From sequence record PZ445442.1: a DNA stretch of 64,000 nt, one strand, 5' to 3'. The position numbers were made by a program, and so were the translations under genes. A model generated the notes under the pieces. It saw nothing but the letters and a program-made list of their open reading frames with translations. It was not told the DNA's origin and did not search any database. Below, piece after piece: positions 5,931 to 32,615 of this stretch (its first letter is position 1; each line of letters starts with the position of its first letter). This DNA comes from a phage.

Positions 5931-8354
5931 ATGAGTATGTGGTCGTTCGATTTTGAGTCATCCGGTTTGCTGGAAGACCCAGATCTTTATTATCACTGCG
6001 GTCTGTTTAAAGAGCTGAATAAGAACCGTTTTATGCTGTTCCTTCCTCTAAATGACCGCACACACTACTCCGAGGAGGATATAGAAAAGGCTAAGAACTT
6101 CATTCTGGCAAAGAAAACTCTTTATAAAGATTTTGAAGTTCGCATAGCAGATTTTTCGGAGTTGGAAGGTTGGCTTACAGGCAATTCTGACTGGTCACCA
6201 ACAGCTTTGAACTGCCATAACTGCTACAGTTATGACTTTATGCTGATGGAAAGATTATCCGGTATTCATTTTGATATGTTCCGTGATCCTAAATGCATGG
6301 GGACTATCAACGATCACCAGGTTAACCTGTTTGATACGTTGGCGATGAGCCGAATCTTGTGGCCTGATCGCCCTTTACCAAAAGGTTGTCCGGACTCTGT
6401 ATTCAACCCGGTTACTAAGAAAATGCAGCCTGTTGGTCCCCACGGCCTTATGGCATGGGGCTACGCCCTTGGTAACCAGAAAGTTCAAATTGATGACTGG
6501 CGCGATCTTCCGTTGTGGAAGTATGTGGATCGTGTATTCGAGGACGTTATCATCCAGGAGCTGCTCTGGAAAGAGCTGGTAGCGGAATCAAAAGGTGTAT
6601 TCTACGGCAAATCTGACATGCAGAACTTTATGTACGATCCTGCCAAAGAGAAGCCGAAAGGGTTCAAGAAGATCACCTGGAAGAACGCATTACGCCGAGG
6701 CATGCTGCAGCACTTCCTGATGGAGCTGCAGGCCCGTCAGGGTGTGTATTTTGACATAGATGGAGCTATTGCTTTACGTGACCGTTGCGATGCGTGGATG
6801 AAAGAAATCGCTGATCGTGTTGAACCACAACTACCTTTAAAAGAGTTGTCAATGTCTCAGCGGCCCAAGTTCCCTGAAAAGCCGTTTAACCAAGATGGGA
6901 CAATCTCCAATAATGGTTGGAAATGGTTAAAAGATAAGCTTGGCTATCCTGTAGATATGAGCGCTTTAGAGTTCAAAGCCCCGCCTAAGCGAGCATTTAC
7001 CTCCACAGGGGATGTCAGCAAGATGGGGATAAAATGGTGTGAAGAGATGGGCTGCAAAGACCCTGATAAGATGGCTGATTTCTTGAGAGGCTATATTAAG
7101 GGCACTTCCACACCACAACCTTTACCTAAAGAGCTGATGGATCAGGCAATAAGTGATCTGCAGCAGAAGCGAATGCCTGACTGCAAGATACCTATGAAAA
7201 TCAGCAATCAGGACGACATTAAGCGGTATCTGATCAGTGCTGGCTGGCTCCCGACGATGTGGAGAACTAAGGATGTAACTAAAGACAGCAAGAAGAAAGC
7301 CCTACCTGATGCAGATGTTGATGCACGAGTATATGCATATATGGACGAGCTTTTAGAGTCAGAGTATTGTGATCTGATTATCAACTTCTGGAACAAAACT
7401 GATGCTAAGTTCCAGACAACCGTGCACAAGTTCCGAAGCTTTCCTAACTCCGAAAGGATTAAAAAGGAAGTATTCGGGAAAATACGTAGAAAAGCTAGGG
7501 CACTTATTACTTCTCCGCAACTGAAAGATACGTTTGGACACCTATGCCCGAATCTTGAAAAATTGAACGGAGAGATGGCTAAAGATATCGTCTTGTGGTT
7601 ATCTTTGCGAAACCGCAGATCGGTACTTGATCCAATCAAGGAGGATAAGGTTGATACTGGTCTTCTTAATCACCCACGTTTGAAGATTGACCATAAGCTT
7701 CCTGCTAAAAGCTCTGGATTAACAAACACTTCCAGACAGAAACACAGTATTTGTGCAAACATGCCTAAACCATCTCCTAAAGTGGTCATGGGTAAAGAGA
7801 TGCGTAGTCTGTGGGGTGTTCCTCCAGGATACTTTGAGATCGGTATTGACGGGTCCAACTTAGAGCAGCTTATCGGGGCTTGGGGTGCCTTTGAGTTCGA
7901 CAACGGATTGTATTATGATGTTGTAAGTAACGGGGACGCACACCAAAACAATGCTGAAGCATATACAAAAGTGGCAGGCAGAGAGGTGTCTCGTAACGAC
8001 GGTAAACCTATCACGTATGGGGTTATGTATGGGGCACAAAAAGATAAAGTTGCAGATATGCTGGACATCTCTCCAGAACTGGGGCAGAGAGTAATTGATG
8101 CTCTCTGGGATGCCAACCCAGGTCTTAAGGGGCGCAAAGAGGATCTGGAGAAATTCTGGGAAGCAACAGGTAAGAAATTTATCTACTCTTTTGACGGGCA
8201 TGCCATTTGGACCCGCTCTAAACACTCTTTGCTTAATGCATATCAGCAAAATGGCGGTGCATCGTTGTGCGACTTGGTCGGAATCCTCATGCACCACCAA
8301 ATGGTGAAGCGTGGATGGTATGATGAAGGTGTTCGTCGTATTATTTATTACCAT
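5931..8354 (+). CDS. DNA polymerase, family A, exon 1 (3'-5' exo + pol motifs A and B)
   Basis: Exo I FDFESSG at N-terminus; motif A-like GIDGSNLEQL; motif B KPITYGVMYGAQ; ORF halts at ...RRIIYYH just before motif C. Exon ends on T8354 (group I 5' splice-site U). Confidence 0.85.
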
Positions 8355-9196
8355 AAATAACATTGTGGCTTCGTGCAGTGATGCACGTCGAAAACCTCTT
8401 TAATTGACGGGAAGGCTAAGTTGACTTTTACACCTAAACATGGTAAAAGCTCAATATGCTAATCCGCAGCGAAGACTAAAGGGGTGTAGTTAAAATGGCT
8501 AGATCAGTTGATTATCACGGATATACCGTGTTTGATGATGGAACAATACCTTTATCGAAACGTGATCATACAACAATGTTCTGTTTTGATAATGGTCGAG
8601 GTTACCTTTGCGTAACCATGTTCATCGAGGGGAAGCAGTGCACAAAAGGTGTCCACCACTTGGTTGCTGAATGCTTTGTATCAAACCCTGATCCTGAAAG
8701 GCTCACATGGGTGAACCATAAGGACGGAAACAAATACAACAATGCATACTGGAACCTTGAATGGACCACCCCTGGTGGAAATATCAAACACGCTTATGAT
8801 AATGACCTCAGAGTAAGGCCAGTCGGTGAGTATAATGCCAACGCTGTACTGACCGAGGATGAGGTAACGGAGATTTGCGAACTGTTACAAAGTGGTTTAC
8901 GACAATGCGAGATTAGGGATCTTGGGTATCCTTATGAGACGGTCAGAGCCATAAAGCAAAGAAGACAGTGGAAACATATCTCTAAAAACTACACCTGGTA
9001 GTAACGTTCAGAGACTATCGAAAGCATAGCGCCAACATAAATTGGTGCGAAGAAGCGAGTAGAGTAGGCCAGCAAGTGCGGTCGAAATGGGAGGTGCCTT
9101 GGTAACAAGGTAGTGAGATAGTCCGATCCATACAGGAAACTGTATGGCTGTGCACGTAATGGTGCGGGGTAGCTTAACGACCTACCTGAACTATTG
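8355..9196 (+). mobile_element. group I self-splicing intron in DNA polymerase gene (contains HNH ORF)
   Basis: P1: exon CCAT (8351-8354) pairs with intron GTGG (8365-8368) giving the U-G splice-site wobble; P7 strands CAGAGACTA (about 9009-9017) and GAGATAGTCCG (about 9115-9125); intron ends in G9196; splicing restores motif C (...YYH|DEYQLQV). Confidence 0.7.
8495..9001 (+). CDS. intron-encoded HNH homing endonuclease
   Basis: Track ORF; HLVAECFVSNPDPERLTWVNHKDGNKYNNAYWNLEW HNH_3-like signature; located between P6-region and P7 of the intron. Confidence 0.75.
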   Translation: MARSVDYHGYTVFDDGTIPLSKRDHTTMFCFDNGRGYLCVTMFIEGKQCTKGVHHLVAECFVSNPDPERLTWVNHKDGNKYNNAYWNLEWTTPGGNIKHAYDNDLRVRPVGEYNANAVLTEDEVTEICELLQSGLRQCEIRDLGYPYETVRAIKQRRQWKHISKNYTW

Positions 9197-9550
9197 GATG
9201 AGTACCAACTTCAAGTGCCTGACACACCTAAGTATAAAACCGTATACACCTTCGACACAATTGAAGAGCTGGAAACATTTAAGGCCAAGCAGGAGGCTAA
9301 ACTTCATGTGTTCGACGGTCATAAGTACAAAAAGGCACGCAAGGATGAGGATGGAAACGAAGTGGTTGACAAGGACGGAAATACGGTGTACGATCCTATC
9401 CTGAACGATGACGGAAAGCTTGAACTTATCTGGAGCCCTGTGGGTGAAATGGTGGTGCATTGCTTCTGGCAAGCTTCTAAAATGATGGGAGTCCCGTTCC
9501 AGATCACAGGTGAATACTTGTGTGGTCGTAATTGGGGTGATTGTCACTAA
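9197..9550 (+). CDS. DNA polymerase, family A, exon 2 (motif C and C-terminus)
   Basis: Begins DEYQLQV (motif C HDE after splicing) and ends ...GRNWGDCH, resembling the C-terminal tail of family-A polymerases. Confidence 0.75.
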   Translation, partial: DEYQLQVPDTPKYKTVYTFDTIEELETFKAKQEAKLHVFDGHKYKKARKDEDGNEVVDKDGNTVYDPILNDDGKLELIWSPVGEMVVHCFWQASKMMGVPFQITGEYLCGRNWGDCH

Positions 9551-12729: not shown

Positions 12730-14000
12730 TGAGCGTTATTCAACAATTCGCTAACCCGATGAATCCGCGTGAAACTGTTTTACTAGCTCACGGCATGATT
12801 AAACGTGTCAGCATCAAGCCTATCAAAGGTGCTGATCCTACAACAGGTATTAAAACCACTGTGTGGCAAGGTAAGAAAATTGAATCCAGCCACACCATCT
12901 CTTTACTGATTTCTGAACTGGATTCCTCTGATAACCTACTTCAAGGTGGTGAAGAAGTTTGGATCAGTATGGGCGATAAGCTGCTTAAACCAGGTCATCA
13001 AGACTCTGTCTCTGTTAAAATTGATGACAAGTGGGAAACCGTAACGCCAGGATGGATCGTAAATATCCCTTTGAAGGCAAACGAGCATAACGGTAAGACC
13101 TACTACAAAGGCTCACTGGCTAAGATGGTTAAGCTGGGTGCAGGAGAGGCTCCAGCAGCGACTCAGCAGCAAAAACAGCAACAAGGTGCACAATCACAAG
13201 GCCAGAAGCAGAAACCTCAGCAGAATGCCAATCAGGGCGTTTTACGCATCTATGGTGATGTGACTCAGATTGTTGGCAACGTGGTTACTGTTAATGACCA
13301 CAAGATTGGCGAAGGTGCTATGGTTGTAACTGATGAGCAGCTTAAAGACCTAGTGGTAGGTGGTCGTGTTGCAGCCATTGTTGACAAAGACACCGGAAAC
13401 ATTATCAGTGGTTTCAAGGCCTATCCTCCTAAGGCAGAGAACGGTACTCAAGGCTCCGGTGGCAAGCGTAAATCCTCTTACGACCCTATTGGTGTGGAGA
13501 CGGGGCATAGCATCAATGCGTTGCAGATCATCCTGGATCGCGGGTTTAAGGTGGACGACCCACTAGGTGTGGCTAAAACACTGCACGTAGTCACCATTGA
13601 GCTTAAGAAAGAGTATGCTCAAGCCACCAACCGAACTGAAGATGAAGTAGGTGCCAGTGTCGGTAATGCGGTGTTGAACGCTTGTCGCCGTATTGACAAG
13701 AAAACGAAAGTTGATGATTTTGCAGCGGCAATTACTGCAGAAGCAAAAGATGTCTTGACTAATCTGGCTGAGCCGTTGTACGATTGGATCAAGAACGGTG
13801 CTGAGTCCACTGACCATCAAGAACCTCAAGCTGCCAAACAGGAAGCCGCTCCACAGCAAAACACTGTAGACGCACCTCCTGTAAATGATGAGGAAGATGA
13901 CCCGATGGGTCAGAATCCGGCGCAGTATGACTTCTGTGATGACATACCTTTCGCTCCGGTAGGTTTGCAATATGGCAAAAGTAGAATCCACGCATTGTAA
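12729..14000 (+). CDS. putative single-stranded DNA-binding (SSB-like) protein with C-terminal extension
   Basis: Inference only: Q-rich flexible linker ([20 protein letters not shown]) and acidic tail ending ...[17 protein letters not shown], resembling the bacterial SSB C-terminal DDDIPF tip, followed by 16 extra residues that overlap the next gene. Confidence 0.3.
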
Positions 14001-14595
14001 GAGGTGCATCAAGTGCGGAGAGGTGAAAGACATCTCCGAGTTCTACAAACACCCAAAGATGTCTGACGGTCATCTTAATAAGTGCAAAGAGTGTTGCAAG
14101 AAGGCCAGCAGGGAGGCTGACCAATTTTCCCACGACTCTTCAGAAAAAGGTGTAATACGCGTGCTGTACAAGGCTCAAAAGTGCAACAGCAAGCAAAGAG
14201 GTCACCCGCCTCCGACTTACACCAAAAAAGAGTTTAAGGAGTGGCTATACCTAAACGGTTACAAAGAGTTGTATGATCAGTGGGTAGCCAGCGGATACGA
14301 CAAAAGGAAAAAGCCTTCTTGTGACAGGATAGATGATTTCAAAGGGTACTCTTTTGATAATATCCGTTTAACGACTTGGGGAGAAAATAAAGACAAGCAG
14401 ACAGAGGATATTCTGTTGCATAGAAGCACCAGCGGTAGACGGTGTAAAAATGTAAGGAGGCTGGACATGAATGGCAACGTTCTTAAAGAATGGGTATCCC
14501 ACAATTCTTGTAGAAGAGAAACCGGAATATGTGTTGATTACTACATTCATGAAAAAATTCCAGCCCCAGATGGATACCTCTACGAATACTTTTAG
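13972..14595 (+). CDS. putative homing endonuclease (zinc-finger + HNH_3-like)
   Basis: N-terminal CxxC...CxxC cluster; [28 protein letters not shown] resembles the HNH_3 core (DHID..N...NLR..T..EN) with D in place of H; start overlaps 3' end of the SSB-like gene. Confidence 0.45.
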
Positions 14596-14610: not shown

Positions 14611-14638
14611 GCCCTGCCCGAAAGGGTGGGGCATTTTT
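14611..14638 (+). terminator. rho-independent terminator (duplicate of the 2334 hairpin)
   Basis: Same GCCCTGCCC-GAAA-GGGTGGGGC stem followed by ATTTTT. Confidence 0.6.
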
Positions 14639-15435: not shown

Positions 15436-15861
15436 ATGATCTATGAAATGCCAAAACTGATTCGCGACGATGCCCAAAACGCTCACACCATTATTATGGG
15501 CAAACGCATGGATATTATTTGTCATAGAGATTTCTGGGAAGGAAGTTACTTCACAGAGTATTTTGGTAAACTGGACAATGGTCTGCTGATCCAGTTCTAC
15601 ACCGATGCGGAAAACAACATTCCCTGGGAGTTCGAAACTGAAGATGTCCATAAACTTTTCACCTTCCTCGGTATTAAGGTTAAGGCCAAGTTTGAAGAAG
15701 GTGAGTGCGACGATTGTGGATTTTATGAGGTAACAGATTTCTACCTTCCTAGCGGTAAGAACCTTTACTATGAAAGCCACTTCGGTAACTCCAATATGCC
15801 ACAGTGCTGGACTGAGTTTTTTGAAATTGCGGAAGAGGAGCTGGCTTACCGTGATTATTGA
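15436..15861 (+). CDS. hypothetical protein (co-transcribed with macro-domain gene)
   Basis: Track ORF; 3' end overlaps start of the next gene. Confidence 0.5.
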   Translation: MIYEMPKLIRDDAQNAHTIIMGKRMDIICHRDFWEGSYFTEYFGKLDNGLLIQFYTDAENNIPWEFETEDVHKLFTFLGIKVKAKFEEGECDDCGFYEVTDFYLPSGKNLYYESHFGNSNMPQCWTEFFEIAEEELAYRDY

Positions 15862-16309
15862 TACTGTAGAGGGAGATTTAATCTCCCTTTTTAAGGGCGG
15901 TGCTGGTCACCTGATCCACGGTTGTAACTGCTTCCACACAATGGGCAAGGGTATAGCAAAACAGATTGCCCGTGAGTTTCCTCAAGCACTGTCAGCCGAC
16001 AAAGAGACTAGATACGGTTGCCTAAGTAAACTGGGTGCGTTCTCCCGATGGGAGCACTTATCTCCGATAGGTATTGTCTACGGAATCAATCTATATACCC
16101 AGTTCTACCCAGGACCTAATGCTGAGTATTTCTCAATCCTGAAAGGCTTTGAGCTAGTCAATGAAGTATTCAGCGGATCGACTTTACCATTCTACATCCC
16201 TAAGATCGGGTGCGGCATAGGCGGTTTGAAGTGGGAACACGTAGAGGACGTTATTAACCTTGCCACTTTCGACATAGATATTGTCGTGGTGGAGTACAAA
16301 AAGTGTTGA
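15851..16309 (+). CDS. putative macro-domain (ADP-ribose binding/hydrolase) protein
   Basis: Track ORF 15770..16309 re-started at GTG 15851 (GAGGAG SD 9 nt upstream). VEGDLIS...GAGHLIHGCNCFHTMGKGIAKQIAREFP and PKIGCGIGGL resemble the macro-domain GDIT...NAAN..GGGVAGAI and ISTGIYG motifs; call is from remembered motifs only. Confidence 0.45.
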   Translation: MIIDTVEGDLISLFKGGAGHLIHGCNCFHTMGKGIAKQIAREFPQALSADKETRYGCLSKLGAFSRWEHLSPIGIVYGINLYTQFYPGPNAEYFSILKGFELVNEVFSGSTLPFYIPKIGCGIGGLKWEHVEDVINLATFDIDIVVVEYKKC

Positions 16310-29533: not shown

Positions 29534-29953
29534 ATGAACATTAAATCTAATAATCCGGCATATAGCTTTGATAACGCTTTTTGTCACGGTCCGGCGGCGA
29601 AAGGATTCGAAATCGATGGTAAACTAATTATTGTCAATGTTGACGGGGAAGAGGTTGCAGTATATCCGGTGGCAGACGTTAAAAGCCGTCTACAATGCCG
29701 CATGGATGTTACCGCCTATCAGCTTGATCCGGTCCGCATAGTTGCCCTGGTCCTGGAAGAAGAAATTAAAGCCATGCACCATAGCAACAGATTTATTGGT
29801 GACGCGCAGGATAATATGAAAGTATGCCGCCATAAAGTTAATGAAGTGCTTAAAGAGTACGGCTATAAAGATCTTATGATCAAACGCGAGGAAAAATTCC
29901 GCTACCGTAACGACCTGGCAAATCGGATTTTTGAAATATACGAATCATTATAA
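29534..29953 (+). CDS. hypothetical protein
   Basis: Track ORF; AAGAGGTAAAAA SD. Confidence 0.55.
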   Translation: MNIKSNNPAYSFDNAFCHGPAAKGFEIDGKLIIVNVDGEEVAVYPVADVKSRLQCRMDVTAYQLDPVRIVALVLEEEIKAMHHSNRFIGDAQDNMKVCRHKVNEVLKEYGYKDLMIKREEKFRYRNDLANRIFEIYESL

Positions 29954-29971
29954 TTTTTTAACTGAATTATC

Positions 29972-29997
29972 AAGGGGCTTAGGCCCCTTTCTTTTTG
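29972..29997 (+). terminator. rho-independent terminator ending the rightward block
   Basis: AAGGGGC-TTAG-GCCCCTT stem followed by TCTTTTTG. Confidence 0.55.
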
Positions 29998-30599
29998 TCT
30001 GCTCTTCCCCCTACCATAAACGGCCCTACCTGGCAAGTGGAATAATTGACGAGCCATCAATCCCACACACTGTACAAACATACATATAAAATAACTATTG
30101 CATAATTTTTCATTGTGTGGTAGCAGGGCCATTTTTACACATTTTTCCTTCCAAAATTGCACGTAATGCAGCATTTGCACAAAATTTAACCTGATGCATA
30201 TATTCAATAGCTTGTCAACAACTAAAAATCTTTATAAGTCATACACTTACATAACTACAAAAGCGTTTTCTACGTGAAAAATCGAGTATAACTATAGCCG
30301 CCAGATCTCAGAATTTACGTACGCTCGCCATTCTATAGCCTGCTAAGCATTTATTCCAACCATAGAATAACGGAATAGTCAATACCTGCATAAAATAATT
30401 ATTCGTGTAAACTGCATAACATAAATCGGCCCAGGTGTCAACATTTTTCGTAAACAGTCTGGAATTGTCACGTTAGGTTACCATAAGCAGAGAAATCTTT
30501 AGTCGTCTAATGTTTACTGTACGTTACTATATTAACTGAAATCATTAGATGACTAATAGAAAGATAAGAAATAATTAACAATACAATTATTTTATCTGT

Positions 30600-30960
30600 A
30601 ACAATAAGGCAACTATGCAAACGAATGGCATGGCGCGACGGAGTCGCGACATAATATAAAAGCAGTAACCATCACCCCCGTGATAGTTTGTCTGCAAACT
30701 ATTAATCAGATCATAGTTGCCTTGTATTTAGTTAATCATGACATAACAAGCAAGGCAACTATAGATCTTCTAATAGTTGCCCTGCTTTTATATTATGTCA
30801 TAAATTATTAACATGCAAACGAATGGCATGGCTTATAATTTTTGAGAAAATAGTCTATACGTGAACAGTAAGGCATGCAATAGTAACAATTGTTATTGTA
30901 TCCAGTGTGTTGAGTATGCCCAGTATGTCACCATTGTGTCCAGTATGTCAGACAAGTTTT
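30600..30960. repeat. cluster of inverted and direct repeats in the convergent non-coding region
   Basis: 9-bp site GGCAACTAT at about 30608 and 30754, its complement ATAGTTGCC at about 30713 and 30773; 19-bp direct repeat TGCAAACGAATGGCATGGC at about 30616 and 30814; 18-bp inverted pair GACATAATATAAAAGCAG (about 30648) / CTGCTTTTATATTATGTC (about 30782); CCAGTATGTCA x2 at about 30920-30950. Confidence 0.5.
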
Positions 30961-32399
30961 CCTCCTCTTTGTCAAGTGCTGCATGAAAAATTTACAAACT
31001 GGTATGGTAGCATTTTTGCGGCCCTGTTTACATTCAGTAATGTATGTATAATCCTTGTTGTGTGGGCGTTTAGACGTCTAGACGGTTGGAAGTCTACAGG
31101 TCAATATCTAATCTATTGGCTGCTAACTATATCCCACACAAATAGTAAGAAATATGATTGTTATATGCGTAAACTGTAACTCATGTTATCAATCCCTGTA
31201 TGTATCACCAGTGGTGCGCATAATGGGTATTATGTTAAATTGCCCGTAATGATAACTATTCTCACAATGATAGGTATTCTCATTCACCCCAACAAAATAG
31301 GTTGCAAATGTTGTGCCACTGTGTGAACGGCCTCACCTATTAATTTGCCTCACTGCCTCGATATTTGAGAATTATTATAAAAATGAGAAGTATTCCCATT
31401 CCGTCCGCCTGGCAGCACTCCAGTCGCTACGGCTCCTGACAGGGCAGCACTCCTGTAGGTCAGGTCAAAATCGGGGTAGAACTGGACCTGTTCAGATATT
31501 TCTGGCTGACTCTTCAGGTCTGTGTGGGAAAAGCCAACCTCTCCGGCGGGGCAGGGGAGGTAAATTAAAAAATTTACGTGGTGTATGAAGAGCCCTTCAG
31601 GTAAGGCATGTATTATAGGATGAAACCCTCTTCAGGCATGATATTTGTGGGTGTGATATTTGCTGGAAAGCCAGATATGACGGGACTCCCGGCGGGGCAG
31701 GGGTAGTACAGACGGGGAAATATGGGGATGTAGTTGGGGAAATTGATCAGGCAGGTGGGGTATAGGATATGTTACAAGTATGTTAAATATGGAGGTTGAA
31801 TATCTGTAGGATTTGTGTGTAAAATCAAAGACTTAAGTGGTGTTGTGGTATTTTCTATAAATAATTCAAGTTTAATAGGTAATATTTGCCTCTATCCACT
31901 TTGTGTGGTAAACAGATTCAGATGAGATTAGTTTACAAGTGTATACATAATATACAAATTAAAGATACAGGAAACCCCCCTCCCCCTTCGGCTACCATTC
32001 ACCTTTTCCTCTGACTGGTACTTAAACACTTATTCAGACTCTTCAGGTTATCACCCATATATCATATGGCAGTGACTGGTGTCCTCCGGCCCCTCTTTCG
32101 TCACCCGTCCGCTTCGCCATGCTAATGCCATAGCCAAAGGTTCGGTTGTTCACCCTGTTCACTCAGGTGTATCTCCATACCCCTTCAAACCGAAGAGAAC
32201 AGAAAACCCGAATTACTCGGTAAAAGAAAAGAGAAGAACTTAATTTTATCAGGATAGGCAAGAATGTCAAGGCATGACTGCTCACTAAACAAGCAAACAG
32301 TCATGTGTGGGAGGTAAGTGATTGTGGTGGTGGGAAATTTAGTTGAAAGATGTGTTATAGGTGCGCTTCCAGCACTTTAGCCGGGCAGCTAATTGTGTG

Positions 32400-32615
32400 T
32401 CAGTCCAGCGGTTCATCCTCTACTTCACTGAAATCAATGTTCATGGTCTCTTCCCAACCATCGATCTCAGCACAAGAGTGGAGTTCTTTAGGGTTTACTC
32501 CCAAAGCCTCAGCAACAGAGTCTATATTTAACACCTCTGGCAGGTATGATTCATCGAATTCAAGGTAAATCAGGCCACGAGTGTTGTCAGCTCCACCAAA
32601 TATTTCTATCTTCAT
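32400..32615 (-). CDS. hypothetical small acidic protein
   Basis: Track ORF; last gene of the leftward block. Confidence 0.5.
   Translation of the reverse strand: MKIEIFGGADNTRGLIYLEFDESYLPEVLNIDSVAEALGVNPKELHSCAEIDGWEETMNIDFSEVEDEPLD

Follow-up and report, generated by a model that had tools for sequence, protein, structure and literature searches.

A Tk.4/AdfM-family macro-domain protein of an rV5-like phage as a probable counter to DarTG2 defense

In Escherichia phage EmilHeitz (Bas49), the gene bas49_0094 encodes a small stand-alone macro-domain protein of the family of phage T4 Tk.4, which was recently renamed AdfM. By analogy with the T4 protein, we think it likely that this protein is a macro ADP-ribosyl hydrolase that undoes the ADP-ribosylation of phage DNA by DarT2. 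We establish here the gene itself, its fold, its family membership and the make-up of its active site. The analogy also makes DarT2-modified DNA the most likely substrate and defense against DarTG2 the most likely biological role. The gene directly upstream, bas49_0093, is by sequence comparison a real conserved gene that is separate from bas49_0094, and the two are probably not functional partners.

Results

The bas49_0093–bas49_0094 locus

The stretch of DNA that we analyzed, called the window here, is 64,000 nucleotides long, and its position 1 is record position 64683 of EmilHeitz (MZ501062.1), an rV5-like Vequintavirus. The 2.8 kb around bas49_0093 and bas49_0094 (0093 and 0094 below) are 100% identical to EmilHeitz and recur at 90–99% identity in ~120 related phage genomes. 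Both ORFs proposed in the initial annotation of this DNA are present and match the GenBank coding sequences of MZ501062.1 exactly. Each is labeled ‘hypothetical protein’ in EmilHeitz; in near-identical relatives, including HdK5, the APECc02 RefSeq record, rV5 variants and O157 typing phages, 0094 carries the label ‘macro domain protein’ or ‘phosphatase’. The features of the locus are as follows.

14611–14632, plus strand: intrinsic-terminator-like hairpin from a pattern scan, a consensus match with a 9-bp stem, 7 GC pairs and a T-run
15436–15861, plus strand: bas49_0093, 141 aa, ATG start, GenBank CDS, PHROG 8157
15835–15861, plus strand: 0093/0094 junction, with a GAGGAG Shine-Dalgarno sequence at 15835–15840, the GTG at 15851 and the TGA of 0093 at 15859–15861
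15851–16309, plus strand: bas49_0094, 152 aa, GTG start at 15851, GenBank CDS, PHROG 335

The GTG start of 0094 and the TGA stop of 0093 create an 11-nt overlap, with the GAGGAG ending 10 nt 5′ of the GTG, and both the overlap and the Shine-Dalgarno sequence are unchanged in six Vequintavirus genomes (Bas49, HdK5, Bas59, inoa, FFH2 and JEP1). An in-frame ATG at 15770 was considered as the start of 0094 and ruled out by the N-termini of the family, because all homologues, which come from many phage groups and include T4 Tk.4, start at MI(I/V)xx(V/I)xGD. Purifying selection acts on both genes, with dN/dS values of ~0.10 for 0094 and 0.11–0.22 for 0093. The pair is part of a long series of small genes on the plus strand that follows the primase/helicase and DNA polymerase genes. 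The hairpin at 14611–14632 is the nearest strong terminator-like element before the pair, and phage HdK5 has an annotated terminator at the equivalent place. Promoter-like sites near the pair are at consensus level only, and scanning the window for Rfam families and tRNAs returned no matches.

A predicted macro fold for 0094

The initial annotation had called 0094 a macro-domain protein from remembered motifs. Every motif it quoted is found in the translation (GDL at residues 8–10, GAGHLIHGCNCF at 17–28, MGKGIAKQI at 31–39, FP at 43–44 and PKIGCGIGGL at 117–126), and profile searches against Pfam, PHROGs and the PDB confirm the call. The protein matches Pfam PF01661 (Macro) with 28 bits (gathering score 22; E 2.2e-6), a precomputed PF01661 match is carried by most of its homologues, and PHROG 335, annotated ‘phosphatase’, is matched at E 7e-59. 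Searched against the PDB, the 0094 profile finds DarG, SCO6735, BT1257, TARG1 and Poa1p at E 4e-16 to 6e-14; the DarG models of PADLOC (E 1e-12) and NCBIfam (E 7.5e-12) also match, covering the macro part alone.

Structure prediction, which the initial annotation had named as a check on its call, gives a confident model and best PDB matches that are all ADP-ribose-bound macro domains. The AlphaFold2 model, built from 58 homologues, has a pLDDT of 97 and a pTM of 0.91. Foldseek finds 180 PDB matches to it at E ≤ 0.001, and the 50 listed among these are macro domains or designed proteins. ADP-ribose-bound TARG1, Poa1p, DarG and SCO6735 are included in the best 22 of the 180 matches (probability 1.00, TM 0.72–0.78), and the best fold matches are TARG1, Poa1p, DarG from T. 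aquaticus and M. tuberculosis, BT1257 and SCO6735. We assign 0094, on its model, a predicted three-layer α/β/α macro fold of the ALC1-like class, to which TARG1, DarG, SCO6735 and Poa1p belong.

Proteins of the Tk.4 type are common in phages. By tblastn, 2769 of 50,697 phage records (~5%) contain a member of the family, and the carriers include the T-even phages, in which the gene is tk.4, as well as Krischvirus, Felixounavirus, Pakpunavirus, Ackermannviridae and others.

Active-site residues and loops

Ten residues of 0094 are invariant in the 58 homologues (G24, N26, G34, A36, N80, Q84, P117, I119, G120 and G125), G32 and G122 are near-invariant, and conservation of H23, Y82 and T83 is 90% or more. 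These positions fall in four short segments.

15917–15928, plus strand: codons of H23-G24-C25-N26; N26 is the conserved macro-domain Asn (DarG N22, SCO6735 N27) in the profile–PDB alignment
15944–15958, plus strand: codons of G32-K33-G34-I35-A36, predicted first Gly-rich loop for ADP-ribose (phosphate)
16088–16102, plus strand: codons of N80-L81-Y82-T83-Q84 (NLYTQ); Q84 is at the position of the catalytic Lys of DarG and TARG1
16199–16225, plus strand: codons of P117-K-I-G-C-G-I-G-G125, predicted second Gly-rich (diphosphate-binding) loop

The features predicted to hold ADP-ribose, namely the conserved Asn and two Gly-rich loops, are all present in 0094 by sequence alignment. G32–A36 is aligned to MGKGIA in DarG and MGAGIA in TARG1, and P117–G125 aligns with PRIGCGLDR of TARG1, PRIGCGLAGG of SCO6735 and PPLGVGNGG of DarG; the position of TARG1 Asp125 is a Gly in 0094. 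In the profile–PDB alignments, Q84 is aligned to DarG Lys80, TARG1 Lys84 and SCO6735 Gln85 (DarG N22 and K80 are counted along the 5M3I chain, with a 10-residue tag offset). Because Q84 thus pairs with SCO6735 Gln85 at the Lys position of DarG and TARG1, the active site of 0094 is, as judged from these alignments, of the Gln type found in SCO6735 and lacks the DarG-type Lys.

Biochemical studies of SCO6735 give this assignment functional meaning. SCO6735 strips ADP-ribose from DarT-modified thymidine in single-stranded DNA, rescues cells from DarT and has the highest thymidine-ADP-ribose hydrolase activity among three enzymes compared; its Q85A mutant is inactive and its N27S mutant nearly so (PMC9411070). 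A role for the conserved Asn is reported for both DarG and SCO6735 (PMC9411070, PMC13309987). The mechanism proposed for SCO6735 also involves Val25 and a longer, Lys-rich mobile loop, which are stated to be specific to that enzyme, and ALC1, which likewise has Gln at the catalytic-Lys position, is described as a binding module (PMC9411070).

Relation to T4 Tk.4 and the DarTG2 phenotype

T4 Tk.4 aligns with 0094 over its full length in BLASTP (residues 1–150 versus 1–152) with 39% identity and E 7e-41. Both are stand-alone macro domains of ~152–155 aa, and they have the HGCNCFHTMGxG, NLYTQ and IGxGIG motifs in common. The Tk.4 protein of RB49, a Krischvirus, is closer still, at 69.5% identity, and its gene lies in vs–tk.4–tk synteny, as does the gene for a 59%-identical metagenomic relative of 0094. 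The neighborhood in Bas49 differs from this T4-like arrangement, with 0093 and 0094 downstream of the DNA polymerase block.

A preprint on a HIDEN-SEQ screen reports tk.4 as the one T4 gene to be depleted of transposon insertions on a DarTG2 host; the depletion was confined to that host, and removal of tk.4 by clean deletion makes T4 sensitive to DarTG2, for which the gene was renamed adfM, for anti-DarT factor macrodomain (10.1101/2025.11.20.689424). Removal of ADP-ribose from DNA by Tk.4 is the proposal of those authors, made without biochemistry (10.1101/2025.11.20.689424). T4 lacking both adfA and adfN had earlier been found to remain resistant to DarTG2 (PMC11825919), which fits the later finding that tk.4 is needed against this system. 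Our literature search on DarTG2 sensitivity of Vequintavirus or Vequintavirinae found no data.

Gene 0093 and the proposed two-gene unit

Sequence comparison indicates that 0093 is a real conserved gene, distinct from 0094. Its family, PHROG 8157, is annotated without a function and comprises 177 phage records from Vequintavirus, Krischvirus and a few T4-like phages, the last of which have the C-terminal half only. That half carries the conserved motif GxCDxCGxYxVxD...PxG...YxExHFGNxNxPxxWxEF. Searches of Pfam, NCBIfam and PADLOC with 0093 gave no match, and the PHROGs search gave PHROG 8157 only; the 0093 profile had 0 matches to PDB sequences at E ≤ 10. The fold of 0093 is predicted with confidence and resembles no solved structure. 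Searched exhaustively by phmmer against 1.84 billion representatives, 0093 gave 11 matches, which are small phage proteins and one artifact, and a profile-based search through 5.8 billion proteins turned up neither remoter relatives nor domain fusions. Residues 77–124 look like the end segment of von Willebrand D domains, CGLCGxY...FGNSW, in a protein of 3189 aa, and a relationship to VWD was rejected.

The initial annotation described 0093 and 0094 as a translationally coupled two-gene unit. Their adjacency is real and coupling is plausible, and both genes are retained in essentially all of ~117 Vequintavirus records; the arrangement is nevertheless confined to Vequintavirus, and elsewhere the two families live apart. 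In RB49 and other Krischvirus phages, the 0093 homologue is directly upstream of dam and 9 kb from tk.4; in three further metagenomic lineages with a 0093 homologue, no macro gene was found within 4–5 kb; and in ~2,600 phage records the macro gene occurs but 0093 does not. Moreover, comparison of Bas49 with Bas59 gives a dS of 1.13 for the macro gene (83% amino-acid identity) and of 0.18 for 0093 (94%), which implies that the two genes recombine independently. Together, these comparisons depict 0093–0094 as neighbors in one lineage, plausibly coupled in translation, and not as a conserved module. Because the adjacency is found in Vequintavirus only and the recombination histories differ, 0093 and 0094 are probably not partners in function.

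A natural deletion allele, in P0017, joins residues 1–57 of 0093 to the C-terminus of the macro protein at a QFY microhomology.

Discussion

We propose the following role for 0094. In a host with the DarTG2 toxin–antitoxin defense, DarT2 would place ADP-ribose on thymidines of single-stranded phage DNA, and this modification would block phage replication. The 0094 protein would grip the ADP-ribose by its two Gly-rich loops and Asn26, and could then cleave the thymidine–ribose bond using Gln84 held by Asn26, in the manner of SCO6735 rather than with a DarG-type Lys. Removal of the adduct would make the DNA replicable again. In such a mechanism, 0094 would act as an orphan ‘antitoxin’ enzyme that has dispensed with the toxin-binding domain of DarG, and 0093 would stand outside as a separate gene, co-transcribed and probably translationally coupled with 0094 in Vequintavirus. 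Several points weigh against this reading. The T4 evidence is of a genetic kind and comes from a preprint, and in the alignments 0094 lacks the Lys of DarG and TARG1 as well as both the Val25 and the Lys-rich loop of SCO6735; in addition, at 39% identity to T4 Tk.4, the substrate range of 0094 could differ. The initial annotation had suggested counter-defense against ADP-ribosylating host systems or NAD-derived signals. The counter-defense role agrees with the genetics of T4 Tk.4/AdfM against DarTG2; nothing in our results supports the idea of NAD-derived signals.

The absence of the catalytic Lys raises the question of whether 0094 is an enzyme at all. An inert ADP-ribose binder or sponge would be compatible with Gln at the position of the DarG and TARG1 Lys, since ALC1 also has this Gln and is a binding module (PMC9411070), but SCO6735 has the same Asn/Gln pair and outperformed the other two hydrolases with which it was compared (PMC9411070), and N26, N80 and Q84 are strictly invariant, as is typical of an active site; we give this possibility very little weight. 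If 0094 is a hydrolase, it might remove ADP-ribose from proteins or RNA instead of DNA, acting on ADP-ribose attached by other ADP-ribosyltransferase toxins or defense systems of the host, or by phage enzymes, in which case protection against DarTG2 would be secondary or absent. Such activity has precedent, as its closest relatives in structure, TARG1 and SCO6735, cleave Glu/Asp-linked ADP-ribose on proteins besides DNA adducts (PMC9411070), and the spread of the family over 2769 phage records could reflect a range of targets beyond DarTG2. Yet the phenotype of the T4 homologue is specific to DarTG2, the Lys/Asp dyad that TARG1 uses for protein substrates is missing in 0094, and the two thirds of the EmilHeitz record that we covered contain no ADP-ribosyltransferase annotation; we therefore regard action on proteins or RNA as unlikely. 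A small-molecule substrate seems less probable again. Here, 0094 would be an ADP-ribose-1″-phosphate phosphatase, or an O-acetyl-ADP-ribose deacetylase working after the phage sirtuin-domain protein bas49_0213, which EmilHeitz encodes outside the window. The RefSeq name of T4 Tk.4 and several relatives is ‘phosphatase; contains A1pp phosphatase motif’, and Poa1p ranks with the top matches in both sequence and fold, its His23 and Ser30 corresponding to His23 and Thr30 of 0094. The ‘phosphatase’ name is, however, an annotation transfer, the T4 tk.4 phenotype again points to DarTG2 specifically, and bas49_0213 is ~52 kb distant and on the opposite strand. We also count against this activity that the Poa1p residue at the position of Q84, which we take to be Ser, is not Gln.

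A different possibility concerns 0093. The two proteins could form a two-component counter-defense, with 0093 as a subunit that binds or targets the toxin in trans and replaces the C-terminal domain of DarG2; 0093 would then be a new anti-defense component, a binder or inhibitor of DarT2 that aids the macro enzyme in Vequintaviruses. This idea draws on the 11-nt overlap and conserved Shine-Dalgarno sequence in 6/6 Vequintavirus genomes, on the co-retention of both genes in essentially all records of that genus, on the lack of a DarT-binding domain in 0094 and on the confidently predicted fold of 0093. Were it true, the range of nucleic-acid ADP-ribose adducts cleaved by the Gln-type Tk.4 family might be broader than that of DarG. 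Against it stand the Krischvirus homologues of 0093 located beside dam, the three metagenomic lineages in which no macro gene is nearby, the many phages with a macro gene and no 0093, the gap in dS between the genes in Bas59 (1.13 versus 0.18) and the lack of resemblance of 0093 to any solved structure. Both the two-component arrangement and a DarT2-directed role for 0093 thus strike us as very unlikely, and reversal of DarT2 modification by 0094 acting as a single enzyme is the reading that we favor.

Parts of this picture were already known. The macro identity of 0094 is annotated in close relatives, and the role of the family against DarTG2 in T4 was reported in 2025. We add the Gln-type, SCO6735-like site of the Tk.4 lineage and, also from sequence, the non-orthology of the two phage proteins called AdfM; we also add 0093 as an independent gene with no detectable known fold. 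A specialist will find no surprise in these results. They do, however, give a specific and testable candidate function to a gene that is left as a ‘hypothetical protein’ in Bas49 and most rV5-like genomes, and rV5-like phages are used in phage therapy and form part of the BASEL collection. More broadly, the presence of a Tk.4-type macro domain in ~5% of phage genomes suggests that DNA ADP-ribosylation of the DarT kind is a common selective pressure, and that DarT-like toxins exert this pressure on large lytic phages.

Comparison with other macro-domain systems

SCO6735 of S. coelicolor (PDB 5E3B) and BT1257 of Bacteroides (2FG1) belong to the same ALC1-like class as 0094 and are about 21–23% identical to it. 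H24, N27 and Q85 of SCO6735 correspond to H23, N26 and Q84 of 0094, and the His-x-Cys-Asn and Asn...Gln elements occupy equivalent positions. The differences lie around these residues. Gly24 of 0094, invariant in the family, replaces Val25 of SCO6735, and NLYTQ replaces NMIGQ; the loop that follows the Gln, QFYPGPNAEY, is ~5 residues shorter than its SCO6735 counterpart, QHGMKTGSKGAPVRYEA, and has no Lys, whereas SCO6735 has Lys89 and Lys94. SCO6735 is moreover a bacterial chromosomal protein and 0094 the product of a phage gene.

DarG2 (T. aquaticus 5M31/5M3E and M. tuberculosis 5M3I) is the top PDB sequence match of 0094, with E 1e-6 for the single sequence and 4e-16 for the profile. The two share the fold, the conserved Asn and the Gly-rich loops and presumably the substrate. 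By contrast, the catalytic Lys80 of DarG is replaced by Gln84, and 0094 has 152 aa compared with ~330–340 aa for DarG, whose DarT-binding C-terminal domain it lacks. The score of 0094 with the DarG equivalog NF048014 of NCBIfam is 45 bits (cutoff 250), with coverage limited to profile positions 3–141 of 338. The missing Lys, the missing C-terminal domain and the sub-threshold score rule out 0094 as DarG proper. No darT gene adjoins 0094, and its neighbors are small phage genes.

Human TARG1 (C6orf130; 4J5R/4J5S) and yeast Poa1p (6LFQ–6LFU) are the top Foldseek matches, with TM values of ~0.74–0.78. The Lys84/Asp125 dyad of TARG1 is absent from 0094, which has Gln84 and a Gly at the Asp position. 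Poa1p is an Appr-1″-p phosphatase with a 25-residue insertion; H23 and T30 of 0094 align with its His23 and Ser30, which are residues also general to the class, and the folds match well.

The chimallivirus AdfM, gp104 of PhiKZ, is likewise a stand-alone phage macro domain. It counters DarTG2 by removing the ADP-ribose that DarT2 places on DNA, and it enters the phage nucleus by import (Cell Rep 2026, PMC13309987). PhiKZ gp104 is only ~20% identical to 0094 (pairwise E 1e-4), which rules it out as an orthologue, and its site is of the Lys type, like that of DarG (FPTKDNW; N23/K78), with FPTK where 0094 has LYTQ. The name AdfM thus covers, on sequence grounds, two non-orthologous phage proteins, one of the T4/Bas49 type and one of the chimallivirus type. 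The ~20% identity and the Lys-type versus Gln-type sites argue that these two AdfM proteins are separate recruitments of the macro fold, and the existence of two non-orthologous types suggests at least two recruitments of macro-domain DNA de-ADP-ribosylases by phages.

Probable exchange and partial loss of the macro gene

The macro gene bas49_0094 (152-aa macro domain, T4 Tk.4/AdfM family) has a history distinct from that of its upstream neighbor bas49_0093. When the Bas59 locus (MZ501061.1, 1501-2374) is aligned with window 15436-16309, divergence shifts abruptly at the boundary between the two genes: dS is 0.18 for bas49_0093 and 1.13 for the macro gene, whose products share 83% amino-acid identity. 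This jump indicates that the macro gene was swapped by recombination, as an allelic replacement. The Vequintavirus macro gene is also much nearer to Krischvirus tk.4 (69.5%) than to T4 tk.4 (39%). Such closeness points to gene transfer linking Vequintavirus and Krischvirus.

The same interval has also been shortened in nature. In a Vequintavirus-like genome on a 135.5-kb metagenomic contig, the counterpart of window 15436-16309 encodes a 121-aa protein (P0017) in which residues 1-57 of the bas49_0093 product (...LLIQFY) are fused to macro-protein sequence that starts at residue 85/86 (QFYPGPN...), with a QFY microhomology at the junction. P0017 is a natural in-frame deletion allele. It lacks the N-terminal half of the macro protein, including the predicted active-site residues N26 and Q84, so at least one lineage in the wild can do without both bas49_0093 and the macro gene.

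Residues 77-124 of the bas49_0093 product (window 15664-15807) form a conserved C-terminal motif. It is similar to the end of von Willebrand factor type D (VWD) domains, which reads CGLCGxY...DDF...PxG...FGNSW, and it aligns with seven repeats in one VWD/C8/TIL protein of 3189 aa, each with 21/53 identities. The Pfam VWD model did not match bas49_0093, and structure lends the likeness no support. The likeness to VWD domains is probably a coincidence of motifs, inflated by the repeats of the matched protein.

Outside the window, the phage has further genes whose NAD/ADP-ribose-related and RNA-repair functions might be linked to the macro enzyme:

MZ501062.1 132688-135813: genes for a sirtuin-domain NAD-dependent deacetylase (bas49_0213), RNA ligase, polynucleotide kinase and phosphoesterase

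Homing endonucleases and interrupted genes

Three loci in the window involve homing endonucleases:

13972-14595: bas49_0090, homing-endonuclease gene
5931-9550: DNA polymerase gene, annotated as two joined pieces with a homing-endonuclease ORF inside
48246 onward (record 112928-115635): class III anaerobic ribonucleotide reductase gene, likewise annotated as two joined pieces with a homing-endonuclease ORF inside

The first of these shares sequence with the 3' end of bas49_0089. It is a mobile insertion whose presence differs between otherwise collinear Vequintavirus genomes: JEP1 and inoa carry it, and HdK5 lacks it, with a terminator immediately 3' of the bas49_0089 homolog. In a 142-aa protein (P0103), an N-terminus near-identical to bas49_0090 (MxKCGEVKDxSEFY...KEWLYxNG) is joined to the last 50 residues of a bas49_0093-family protein, and this composite sequence suggests a homing-endonuclease insertion into, or fusion with, a bas49_0093 homolog of another phage. 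Rfam group I and group II intron models matched nowhere in the window; the polymerase and reductase interruptions may represent either introns outside Rfam coverage or inteins.

A region without annotated genes between convergent gene blocks

The annotated plus-strand gene block ends at 29953 and the minus-strand block begins at 32400, converging on a repeat-bearing stretch:

29954-32399: stretch without annotated genes, 2.4 kb
30599-30832: dense repeat cluster within it
30615 and 30813: copies of an exact 20-nt direct repeat
30648 and 30782: arms of a perfect 18-nt inverted repeat

Within the cluster, ATAGTTGCC occurs in several copies and in both orientations. Rfam families gave no match in 29954-32399. 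We consider this region a candidate for an origin of replication or for an essential cis-acting element of another kind; in the related phage Bas54, the equivalent ~2-kb region is devoid of tolerated transposon insertions (HIDEN-SEQ preprint, 10.1101/2025.11.20.689424).
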